Part shown: positions 43,311-44,115 of the stretch, one piece after another | Layout of the letters: each line of letters opens with the position of its first letter | How positions within the stretch are numbered: position 1 is the stretch's first letter | Assembly: GCF_011045215.1 (NCBI RefSeq) | Contig: NZ_CP049201.1 | DNA length: 64,000 nt | Reading direction: 5' to 3' (one strand) | Source: Escherichia coli | GTDB taxonomy: Bacteria; Pseudomonadota; Gammaproteobacteria; Enterobacterales; Enterobacteriaceae | The notes under the pieces: model-generated | Database searches by the model: none | What the model was told of the DNA's origin: nothing | What the model saw: only the letters and a program-made list of their open reading frames with translations | Made by a program: the position numbers and the translations under genes

Positions 43311-43895
43311 TCACTCAGCTCTCTGTTGCCGTAACTTCTCCGGCACGTTTCCGGTTGTTTCCATCAGATAATCTTCCAGAATGCGGGGCAGGTTATCGGC
43401 AGTTTTAGCGCACGCATTACAGGCGCGTGCTGTTTCCCTCCTCAGGCCATCGATCATTGCCGGAGTCATCGCGGGAAACTGCCTTTGCATCGTAAGGGGC
43501 AAGCTATTCATGATGGTTGAAATCTGTTGCGCCAGTTTAGACAGTGCATACATACAAAAGCCGGTATCTATAACCTCTCCTGTCTCCCTGGCGTTCTTCA
43601 GTTCCTGCCCGTCAGCCTGTGCTTTAGTGAGACGGTATCGTTCGTACTCTGTTGTGCCTGGCTGTAAATCTGATTCACCAACGGCACGTAAATCATCAAG
43701 CTCACTGCGGAGTTTTTCTTTTTCGATCTCCTTCTCCCTCTGTACATACCATTCGATCACCTGTGAAGAGTCGAAAGTCACCTCCATACCTTTTCCGCCA
43801 CCAGATACATGGGGGAGCCCTTGCATCTGCCAACGTTCAATTGTGCGCGGATCAACACCGAAAATCTCTGCCAGTCTCTTTTTGTTAACATTCAT
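43311..43895 (-). CDS. Terminase small subunit, lambda Nu1-like (element copy)
   Basis: N-terminus [39 protein letters not shown] resembles recalled lambda Nu1 winged HTH; C-terminal half similar to the prophage TerS at 62051..62560. Confidence 0.8.
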   Translation of the reverse strand: [194 protein letters not shown]

Positions 43896-44039
43896 TTATC
43901 AAATCCTCATCAAAAACCACCTCCGACATGAAACGCCTGAAAAACGGGATTTTCCGGCGTTATGGTGTCGTATGTTTATTATAGTTAATTTAAATAAAAA
44001 CATAATGTTACATGCAAGAAGTACCGACATGCTTTTTCC

Positions 44040-44115
44040 CTGAAAAATTTTCATAAATAGTGAAAATCTGCGCGTCTGCCGCCCCGCGGTGTTTCTGATT
44101 CTGGAAAGGACCCGT
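44040..44115. other. Lambda-like cos site of the element
   Basis: GAAAAATTTTCATAAATAG ... GCGCGTCTGCCGCCCCGCGG ... GGAAAGGACCCG; reverse complement resembles the lambda cos junction (CGCTATTTATGAAAATTTTCC, GGGCGGCGACCT, GGGTCCTTTCC); about 185 bp upstream of terS. Confidence 0.6.

Follow-up and report, generated by a model that had tools for sequence, protein, structure and literature searches.

A phage satellite embedded in a helper-type prophage of Escherichia coli carries its own small terminase subunit in place of Rpp

Introduction

How can a phage satellite that encodes no large terminase subunit (TerL) have its own DNA packaged, rather than that of its helper? The question is raised by a stretch of 64,000 nucleotides (nt) from Escherichia coli (contig NZ_CP049201.1), referred to here as the window. 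Positions 42340-53501 of the window (11.15 kb) are a phage-inducible chromosomal island (PICI) of the EcCICFT073 family, embedded in a helper-type prophage. Positions 43091-44113 are the packaging-specificity module of this satellite, in which the gene for a small terminase subunit (TerS) lies between two cos sites. An original prediction, made from the DNA letters, had proposed that the element carries its own lambda-like cos site and a TerS that recruits the helper TerL and directs it to element DNA; it overlooked both the status of the satellite as a helper-embedded PICI and the second of its two cos sites, which is inverted (43091-43162). The answer favoured here, on balance and with due reserve, is that the satellite TerS would bind its own cosB, which is of the phage 21 type, and would recruit the TerL of the helper, such that satellite DNA would be packaged from the adjoining cos site (cos1).

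The situation can be seen as analogous to that of phages lambda and 21, which have cosQ and cosN in common while cosB is specific to each: the winged helix-turn-helix (HTH) of TerS reads the R sites of cosB, the C-terminus of TerS binds TerL, and natural and laboratory chimeras join the halves of the two TerS proteins (PMC9026076). Here, however, the two specificities belong to a satellite and to its carrier prophage, and the satellite has no TerL.

Three lambda-type cos sites

Three matches to the pattern GAAAAATTTTCATAAAYAG-N40-48-AAGGACCC lie in the window (43091-43162, 44042-44113 and 62704-62775), and none of 100 shuffled sequences contains it. Read on the strand of the TerS gene, all three sites align base for base with lambda cos, and each has the order cosQ (GGGTCCTT, with the lambda word GGGTCCT), a spacer of ~19 nt, a GC-rich cosN, and I2 (CTATTTATGAAAATTTT), at lambda spacing. 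The pattern spans 72 nt in the window sites and 73 nt in lambda-type relatives. The three sites are as follows:

44042-44113, minus strand: core of satellite cos1, with I2 at 44042-44060, cosN at ~44073-44085 and cosQ at 44103-44113
43091-43162, plus strand: core of satellite cos2, inverted with respect to terS, with cosQ at 43091-43101, cosN at ~43118-43131 and I2 at 43144-43162 (from the inverted repeat, the pattern match and alignment with the other cores)
62561-62775, minus strand: prophage cos, with its core at 62704-62775 (I2 62704-62722, cosN ~62735-62748, cosQ 62765-62775)

A repeat search returned the same sites, as a direct repeat pair (44042-44121 and 62704-62783, 81% identity) and as an inverted repeat pair of 93 nt (43077-43169 and 44035-44127). 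In pairwise alignment, cos1 and the prophage cos are 81% identical across 79-80 nt, which is cosQ-cosN-I2 only, with no similarity beyond. The cosN sites of cos1 and of the prophage lie ~180-190 nt 5′ of the ATG of the respective TerS gene (43895 in the satellite, 62560 in the prophage), and between cosN and the start of terS, cos1 has R3, I1, an inverted R2 and R1, as in a lambda-type cosB. Thus, both the lambda-like architecture that had been noticed at 44040-44115 and 62700-62776 and the distance of about 180 bp from each site to its TerS gene were borne out.

The satellite TerS and cos1 as a matched pair

The genes and sites that determine packaging specificity in the satellite and in the prophage are:

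43311-43895, minus strand: satellite TerS, 194 amino acids (aa), with a phage-21-type winged-HTH half, a satellite-specific C-domain and an end tail of 13 aa
43896-44041, minus strand: cosB of cos1, phage-21 type, with R3 at 44019-44032, I1 at 43998-44010, R2 at 43964-43974 and R1 at 43920-43933
62051-62560, minus strand: prophage TerS, 169 aa, PhiR12_2 type, with a match to Phage_Nu1 over residues 71-150 only
60163-62115 as listed, minus strand: prophage TerL, whose probable start is the ATG at 62079

The satellite TerS is a full-length member of the Nu1 family, including the winged HTH: it matches Pfam Phage_Nu1 (PF07471) over residues 1-162 (E = 2.7e-68) and the solved lambda TerS over residues 1-98 (E = 5.6e-37), and its matches in the PDB (6hn7_B, 1j9i and 7lwr) include the DNA-binding domains of lambda and 21. 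The N-terminus had been described as similar to that of lambda Nu1; membership of the Nu1 family stands, although residues 1-100 are closer to phage 21 gp1 (75% identity) than to lambda Nu1 (64%). The recognition helix reads RTIERWQM in the satellite, RTIERWQS in phage 21 and RTIQNWQE in lambda. The cosB of cos1 follows the same type: its subsites agree with the annotated sites of phage 21 (R3 GCATGTCGGTACTT, an I1 resembling a site for integration host factor, an inverted R2, and R1 TTTCATGTCGGAGG), and the stretch from cosN to R1 is 76% identical to phage 21 across ~177 nt (phage 21 positions 1-174). As the helix and the R sites are both of the 21 type, the satellite TerS and cos1 would form a matched pair by the rules established for lambda and 21 (PMC9026076).

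The prophage has a different specificity. The first 70 residues of its TerS are without similarity to Nu1, and over residues 1-100 the prophage and satellite proteins are 23% identical, in agreement with the earlier view that the N-terminus of the prophage TerS is unrelated. The R words likewise differ (CATGTCGG in the satellite, ACTTCCGG in the prophage). In the prophage cosB, where R is ACTTCCGGTT, R3 (62685-62698) and R2 (62628-62641) are clear and R1 is uncertain. By comparison of R words and by alignment, the cosB type of the resident prophage is absent from the satellite, so that the prophage TerS should not recognise the satellite; nor should the satellite TerS recognise the prophage. 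Since cosQ-cosN-I2 alone is common to the two genomes, while the R sites and the TerS N-termini differ, it is plausible that a borrowed TerL is redirected to satellite DNA.

The ratio of non-synonymous to synonymous substitution rates (dN/dS) for the satellite TerS is 0.10-0.34 in both halves. Both halves of the protein are under purifying selection.

A satellite inserted into a prophage late gene

That 42340-53501 is an insertion follows from comparison with a prophage of the same family in E. coli STEC276, in which the tail genes (26000-42349 in the window) are contiguous with the head genes (53491-64000 in the window). The empty site of the STEC276 prophage reads ...TTCAAAAGAGACACGG..., and its 9-bp core, CAAAAGAGA, is doubled at the two satellite junctions. 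The interrupted gene, which is 183 aa when intact, is a late gene flanked by the head-tail joining genes on one side and by baseplate V on the other, and the satellite is co-oriented with it:

42340-42348: attachment core CAAAAGAGA at the left end of the satellite, as at the empty site of the STEC276 prophage
53493-53501: duplicated attachment core CAAAAGAGA at the right end
53434-53898, minus strand: N-terminal part of the interrupted prophage late gene, the rest of which is at ~42179-42348 (from comparison with the intact STEC276 gene)

Within these ends, the gene order is int, AlpA-like, Bro/Ant, DUF4222, RepA helicase, single-stranded DNA-binding protein (SSB), capsid, decoration protein, a 141-aa scaffold-like protein, TerS and orf93. 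This is the content of a Gram-negative PICI of the EcCICFT073 family: int with AlpA, a Bro zone, helicase/primase with SSB and a capsid-bearing late zone in one unidirectional operon, without tail or lysis genes. Islands of this family are 10-20 kb long, and a helper phage induces them and transfers them at high frequency. A degraded prophage was considered and rejected, in view of the precise absence of the segment from the sister prophage, its PICI gene content and its recurrence at other attachment sites. A capsid-forming PICI (cf-PICI) was rejected too, as genes for TerL, portal and protease are absent from the satellite.

The host prophage is a mosaic (its parts lie at ~29800-42350 and 53434-64000), with lambda-like head and terminase genes and with tail genes of a contractile, baseplate-bearing type (sheath, gpW/gp25, baseplate J and V, and a protein resembling late control protein D). 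A literature search on the PhiR phage names found nothing relevant.

The C-terminal domain of the satellite TerS and the choice of TerL

In lambda, the last ~40 residues of TerS bind TerL, and the central region serves oligomerisation (Murialdo and Feiss, PMC9026076). Which TerL the satellite TerS might recruit is therefore a question about its C-terminal part, where the original prediction had seen clear homology with the prophage protein. Pairwise alignment of the two proteins (BLASTP) gave 38% identity (E = 1e-35), mostly in the C-terminal part, with 48% identity over residues 101-181. Homology of the C-terminal halves thus holds. However, the block quoted in its favour (residues ~108-152) falls in the central oligomerisation region, outside the last ~40 residues; the conservation there is ~59% over residues ~105-150, a rough figure counted from alignments, as against 41% for the last 41 residues, where TerL would be bound. 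Over those 41 residues, the satellite TerS is 51% identical to that of PhiR5_1 and 24-27% identical to those of lambda and 21.

Pairs of phages offer a comparison. The STEC276 prophage (L009:10667-11215) and the window prophage have TerL proteins that are 93% identical and TerS proteins of different types (182 aa, PhiR5, and 169 aa, PhiR12); the N-terminal 48 residues of TerL diverge in step with the TerS type, to 46% identity, and the TerS tails are 49% identical. Between the window prophage and PhiR12_2, identity is 85% for the tail and 79% for the TerL N-terminus. The comparison shows an exchange of cosB, TerS and the N-terminus of TerL as a cassette among phages. As the C-terminus of TerS and the N-terminus of TerL co-vary in this way, 41% identity between tails is no proof of compatibility.

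A database search separated a class of TerS proteins of 193-200 aa, at least 71% identical to the satellite TerS, from phage proteins of 181-183 aa, at most 69% identical to it. Within the former class, residues 115-181 are 73-100% identical, and at most 55% identical to any phage TerS, while residues 1-70 track different phages, with variants that are 99% identical to a phage TerS, 94% to phage 21 and 84% to a Citrobacter type. All 25 of the 25 loci examined that encode such a protein are PICIs without an adjoining TerL. The C-domain is thus a satellite-specific lineage, and cosB and the DNA-binding half appear to have been traded with phages as a unit. (In one of the PICI loci, L007, a DUF1441 protein 5′ of the module was considered as a TerS of prophage type and rejected.)

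The idea that the C-terminal half is specifically matched to the resident helper was rejected, given 51% identity to PhiR5_1 against 41% to the resident protein, and its conservation across PICIs. A signature, N-x-C-A-x-T-x-[DE]-x-L-P-x-x-L-x-[DE]-Y, is nevertheless present in the satellite C-domain and in the PhiR5/PhiR12 group, including the resident prophage, and is not found in the TerS of lambda or 21. Because of this common signature, use of the TerL of the resident prophage is plausible, though unproven.

Might the module, then, serve a different helper? The satellite TerS and cos1 would in that case act with infecting phages of the 21/PhiR5_1 type, or with other prophages of the strain, and the resident prophage would serve chiefly as a place to integrate and as a regulatory host. 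The closest phage TerS overall is indeed that of PhiR5_1 (76% identity in the N-terminal half, 59% over residues 101-181 and 72% at the nucleotide level), the cosB of cos1 is of the 21/PhiR5 type, and the same TerS family is found in PICIs at tRNA-Pro/yejM and next to phoQ, outside any prophage. This alternative is nonetheless unlikely: embedding in the late operon argues for a working relationship with the resident prophage (PMC10111431), the STEC276 sister prophage has a TerS of the PhiR5 type, which places the resident prophage family near that group, and a satellite TerS would be redundant if the helper already read a 21-type cosB.

A second alternative, less probable again, starts from the central block, which is better conserved between satellite and prophage than the tail. 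The satellite TerS might form mixed oligomers with the helper TerS via the central region, with satellite subunits reading cosB and helper subunits providing the TerL-binding tail, and the helper TerS would be poisoned in the process. This would resemble the action of Rpp, which is thought to be derived from TerS and acts via a bridge to the helper TerS (PMC6739421, PMC9026076), and the satellite terS occupies the position of rpp. Against such bridging, the full-length C-domain is strongly conserved in PICIs and under purifying selection, which is hard to explain if its tail is unused; moreover, the pairing of Rpp with TerS uses mimicry of the DNA-binding domain, and the N-terminal domain of the resident TerS, at the low identity given above, is not Nu1-like.

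Proposed mechanism

The favoured reading, in which the satellite TerS binds its own cosB and recruits the helper TerL, can be set out as a series of steps. After induction, late transcripts of the prophage could extend into the co-oriented satellite, along the lines suggested by Tommasini et al. for their own model (PMC10111431), and the satellite would be excised and then replicated. The phage-21-type winged HTH of the satellite TerS would bind R3-I1-R2-R1 of its own cosB (43896-44041), and the C-terminal part would bring in the helper TerL, which would nick cosN (~44073-44085), package satellite concatemers and stop at the next cosQ-cosN-I2. One TerL could act on both DNAs because the cosQ-cosN-I2 core is common to satellite and prophage, whereas each TerS would mark only its own genome because the cosB sites and the DNA-binding domains differ. 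The TerS module would in this way stand in for the Rpp of EcCICFT073, as a self-contained version of the Rpp trick, while cos2 (43091-43310) would probably allow direct packaging by helpers of the SerU-LTIIb type (see below). Anatomy, homologies, mosaicism of the cassette, purifying selection and the insertion site are observed; that the protein binds DNA and recruits TerL, which phage serves as helper and how cos2 is used are what we infer from them.

Several points weigh against this reading. The link between the satellite TerS and TerL rests on comparison of sequences, in which the tails of the satellite and resident proteins have only their 41% identity, and lambda and 21, which are similarly distant from each other, are not interchangeable (PMC9026076). 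PICIs at different chromosomal sites have a conserved C-domain, which is therefore not tuned to the resident prophage. Captured late genes need not be used, as the capsid genes of EcCICFT073 are dispensable for its transfer (PMC6092414). A search for sigma-70-like promoters in 42300-44700, which includes the surroundings of terS, found none, and expression is not obviously guaranteed, because in some relatives the gene is antisense to the satellite operon. Of the earlier proposal that the satellite TerS recruits the helper TerL to satellite DNA, there remain in favour the complete cos of the satellite, its distinct cosB, and the 21-type helix and R sites; a special match of its C-terminus to the helper does not.

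That TerS and cos1 are passive pickups of phage late genes without a dedicated role, with packaging only via a helper TerS that recognises a satellite cos, is very improbable: although late genes of helpers are taken up into the late zones of PICIs (PMC10111431), EcCICFT073 can be transferred without its capsid genes (PMC6092414) and loss of terS from between the two cos sites seems to have occurred in some related PICIs, the C-domain of the 193-200-aa lineage has been kept across many PICIs while the N-terminal half was swapped, dN/dS is low, and terS has a constant position, equivalent to that of rpp and coupled to a matching cosB.

The second, inverted cos site

The second cos of the satellite has a cosB of its own:

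43163-43310, plus strand: cosB of cos2, in lambda layout, with R3 at 43172-43188, I1 at 43193-43205, R2 (inverted) at 43226-43238 and R1 at 43272-43284

Its R words are CAGATCC(G/T)TTCT, repeated at the positions of lambda R3, R2 and R1. Across 205 nt, the cos2 region has 75% identity with the cos of the prophage SerU-LTIIb, with R words and layout in common. In SerU-LTIIb, this cos precedes a TerS with another recognition helix, RTITGWQS, and 38 of 5426 complete E. coli genomes have this specificity type. To judge from these likenesses, the cosB of cos2 is that of a different type of lambdoid prophage, namely SerU-LTIIb.

Paired inverted cos sites are a trait of the family, in which the cosB type of the inverted cos differs between islands. 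The inverted cos of EcCICFT073 (L002:8094-8345), an island in which the original authors found no phage cosB (Fillol-Salom et al., PMC6092414, PMC6739421), matches the cos of phage PhiR12_2 (L006:2510-2745) with 93% identity across 179 nt, including the R sites ATGTCCGGTT. PICIs with the TerS variant P0037 have a diverged inverted cos 3′ of terS, with three copies of a third type of word, ATGGGACA (L015:7586-7945). This suggests that, of the two cos sites in such an island, one is private and the other is a copy of a phage cos. The possibility that orf93 decides the cosB type of cos2 was rejected, since orf93 is 74% identical in EcCICFT073 and yet the inverted cos there has a different cosB.

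In some related islands (e.g. E. coli VTB97432v, TUM9812 and STEC313), both flanks and both cos sites match, the intervening segment is ~500 bp shorter and TerS is unannotated; terS has apparently been lost from these cos-cos modules.

Inversion of the cos-terS-cos cassette

In two PICI loci, L007 and L008, the 1,025-bp segment from cos to cos lies in opposite orientations, the islands being otherwise collinear. Among complete genomes with both junctions, 13 have the L007 arrangement and 2 the L008 arrangement. In contigs with the identical TerS P0033 (L020-L034 and similar; the tally comprises the displayed loci and further similar ones), terS is antisense to the island in 8 of 23 and sense in 15 of 23. 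In all four of the inverted P0033 loci displayed, the cosQ-side halves of the cores have been exchanged, while the cosB-side halves have been kept with the cassette. From this exchange, the breakpoint lies within 25 bp common to both arms, CCCGTTACG-GGGCGGCGACCT-CGCG, which contain cosN.

At a lambda-type cos, terminase makes staggered nicks that give cohesive ends of 12 nt. If both cosN sites were cut, the cohesive ends of the two inner ends would be identical, so that re-joining in either orientation is possible; recombination within the 25-bp identity is an alternative to cutting and re-joining. That inversion recurs, and that its breakpoints fall inside cosN, suggests a reshaping of the modules by terminase or by recombination at cos.

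A tentative extension of these observations is that cos-terS-cos is an invertible packaging cassette of dual specificity, doubtful as this must be at present. It would comprise a private cos with a TerS whose C-domain is a broad adaptor for TerL proteins, and a public inverted cos that copies a phage cosB, of the SerU-LTIIb type in the window, the PhiR12_2 type in EcCICFT073 and the third type in other PICIs. Terminase would cut both cosN sites and the ends would re-join, switching terS between sense and antisense with respect to the satellite operon. The inversions and the cosN-containing breakpoints are plainly seen in the sequences; flipping may proceed, and may function, in this manner.

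Other genes of the satellite and side observations

The remaining features of the satellite are:

42761-43045, minus strand: orf93/94, 94 aa, the last satellite gene (phrog_1561, E = 5e-49), a small conserved PICI protein
44157-44181, minus strand: hairpin resembling an intrinsic terminator, with a 10-bp stem and T8, between the capsid genes and cosQ
44195-44620, minus strand: scaffold-like protein, 141 aa (phrog_1999 and head-protease C-terminus), 34% identical to its prophage counterpart
44635-44964, minus strand: head decoration protein (phrog_49), 36% identical to its prophage counterpart
44975-46030, minus strand: major capsid protein (phrog_29), 46% identical to that of the prophage and 65% to that of EcCICFT073
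46495-46917, minus strand: SSB, in the replication zone, where the order is as in PICI locus L001 and EcCICFT073
47367-48782, minus strand: RepA-type helicase/primase, replication zone
48779-49078, minus strand: DUF4222 protein, replication zone
51239-51820, minus strand: Bro/Ant-like protein
51871-52080, minus strand: AlpA/excisionase-like protein
52087-53418, minus strand: tyrosine integrase

An open reading frame of 176 aa (50293-50823, plus strand) runs opposite to the satellite operon, between the Bro and replication zones, and is possibly accessory cargo; it has no match in PHROG or NCBIfam. A search of NCBIfam with TerS, orf93, the 141-aa protein and the 176-aa protein added nothing further, and no Rfam RNA families were found in 42000-54000. 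The prophage gene for the S49 head protease contains three tandem repeats of 138 nt (46 aa) at 57041-57454, in its scaffold-like C-terminal part, and the 141-aa satellite protein (44195-44620) is related to this head-protease repeat (repeat family D2, phrog_53 tail).

When the exact sequence of the satellite TerS was looked up, a single contig (8.7 kb) was returned, of the same composite. In a collection with one genome per species, a first scan for relatives found none and a second only three loci, 56% identical, from Providencia or metagenome-assembled genomes. In PICIs at tRNA-Pro, a gene for a fimbrial subunit of the K88/F4 family is present as antisense cargo adjoining cos-terS-cos (L008:10372-11163; L035:1144-1935). 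One island with TerS P0033 adjoins a truncated Peptidase_S49 gene (L030:1-430), which suggests another helper-embedded insertion, in a head protease gene.

Comparison with known systems

The satellite is most usefully compared with EcCICFT073, located in strain CFT073, and with other cos-type PICIs that use Rpp (PMC6092414, PMC6739421). The order capsid, decoration protein, small hypothetical protein, terminator, cos, specificity gene, inverted cos and orf93 is the same, with a hairpin and T-run at the equivalent place; both islands have two cos sites with lambda-like cosQ-cosN cores; the capsid proteins are 65% identical, and orf93 is 74% identical to a 93-aa protein 3′ of the inverted cos of EcCICFT073. 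The slot of the satellite TerS is occupied in EcCICFT073 by the 144-aa rppA, flanked by an equivalent pair of inverted cos sites. The difference lies in the specificity gene, which in the satellite encodes a 194-aa, full-length TerS of the Nu1 family, whereas Rpp proteins have 139-154 aa, lack the TerL-binding domain and require the helper TerS (PMC6739421, PMC9026076). An Rpp would have a winged HTH with helical dimerisation, no TerL-binding tail and homology to RppA, RppB or RppC; the satellite TerS is not of this kind, as it matches RppA in BLASTP over 30 residues of the HTH only (residues 3-32, E = 1e-5) and RppC in the PDB in the HTH only (E = 0.002). Moreover, a single private site has been proposed for the Rpp PICIs (PMC9026076), whereas the cosB of cos1 has the full phage 21 set of R3-I1-R2-R1.

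With the helper-embedded PICIs described by Tommasini, Mageeney and Williams (2023, PMC10111431), the satellite has in common a short direct repeat at its ends and the integration, Bro, replication and late zones. Unlike the model island 11capE, which has no terS and has its cos region in common with the helper, it carries a terS itself, and its cosB differs from that of the host prophage. Those authors describe 14 insertion sites; the target here is the 183-aa late gene of a contractile-tail prophage.

The use of a helper TerL by a satellite TerS is established for Staphylococcus aureus pathogenicity islands (SaPIs), as discussed in PMC6739421. The TerS of SaPIs (pac) and that of the phage-inducible chromosomal island-like elements (PLEs) likewise redirect the helper large terminase to satellite DNA, but these systems use headful (pac) or other packaging and unrelated TerS proteins, whereas the satellite here is a cos system of the Nu1 family. 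The cf-PICIs, as portrayed in the abstract of Alqurainy et al. 2023 (bioRxiv 10.1101/2022.09.08.507074), also encode capsid and packaging proteins, but they bring every function for forming capsids and for packaging themselves, so that the phage supplies only the tails, whereas the satellite here is without TerL, portal and protease.

Significance

A cos-type, helper-embedded PICI that carries its own TerS in place of Rpp is a variant of a known hijacking strategy. To our knowledge, Rpp is the only characterised route to private packaging for enterobacterial cos-type PICIs. A sister lineage with a complete TerS in the rpp slot would be a second solution to private packaging and a plausible ancestor of Rpp. 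It would also offer a natural system in which to see how a TerS tail chooses among TerL proteins, or fails to discriminate among them, the features of interest being the satellite-specific TerS tail, the dual cos specificity and the inversion bounded by cosN. PICI islands of this kind move virulence and fitness genes, as in the relative in which the gene for a K88/F4 fimbrial subunit stands beside the module.

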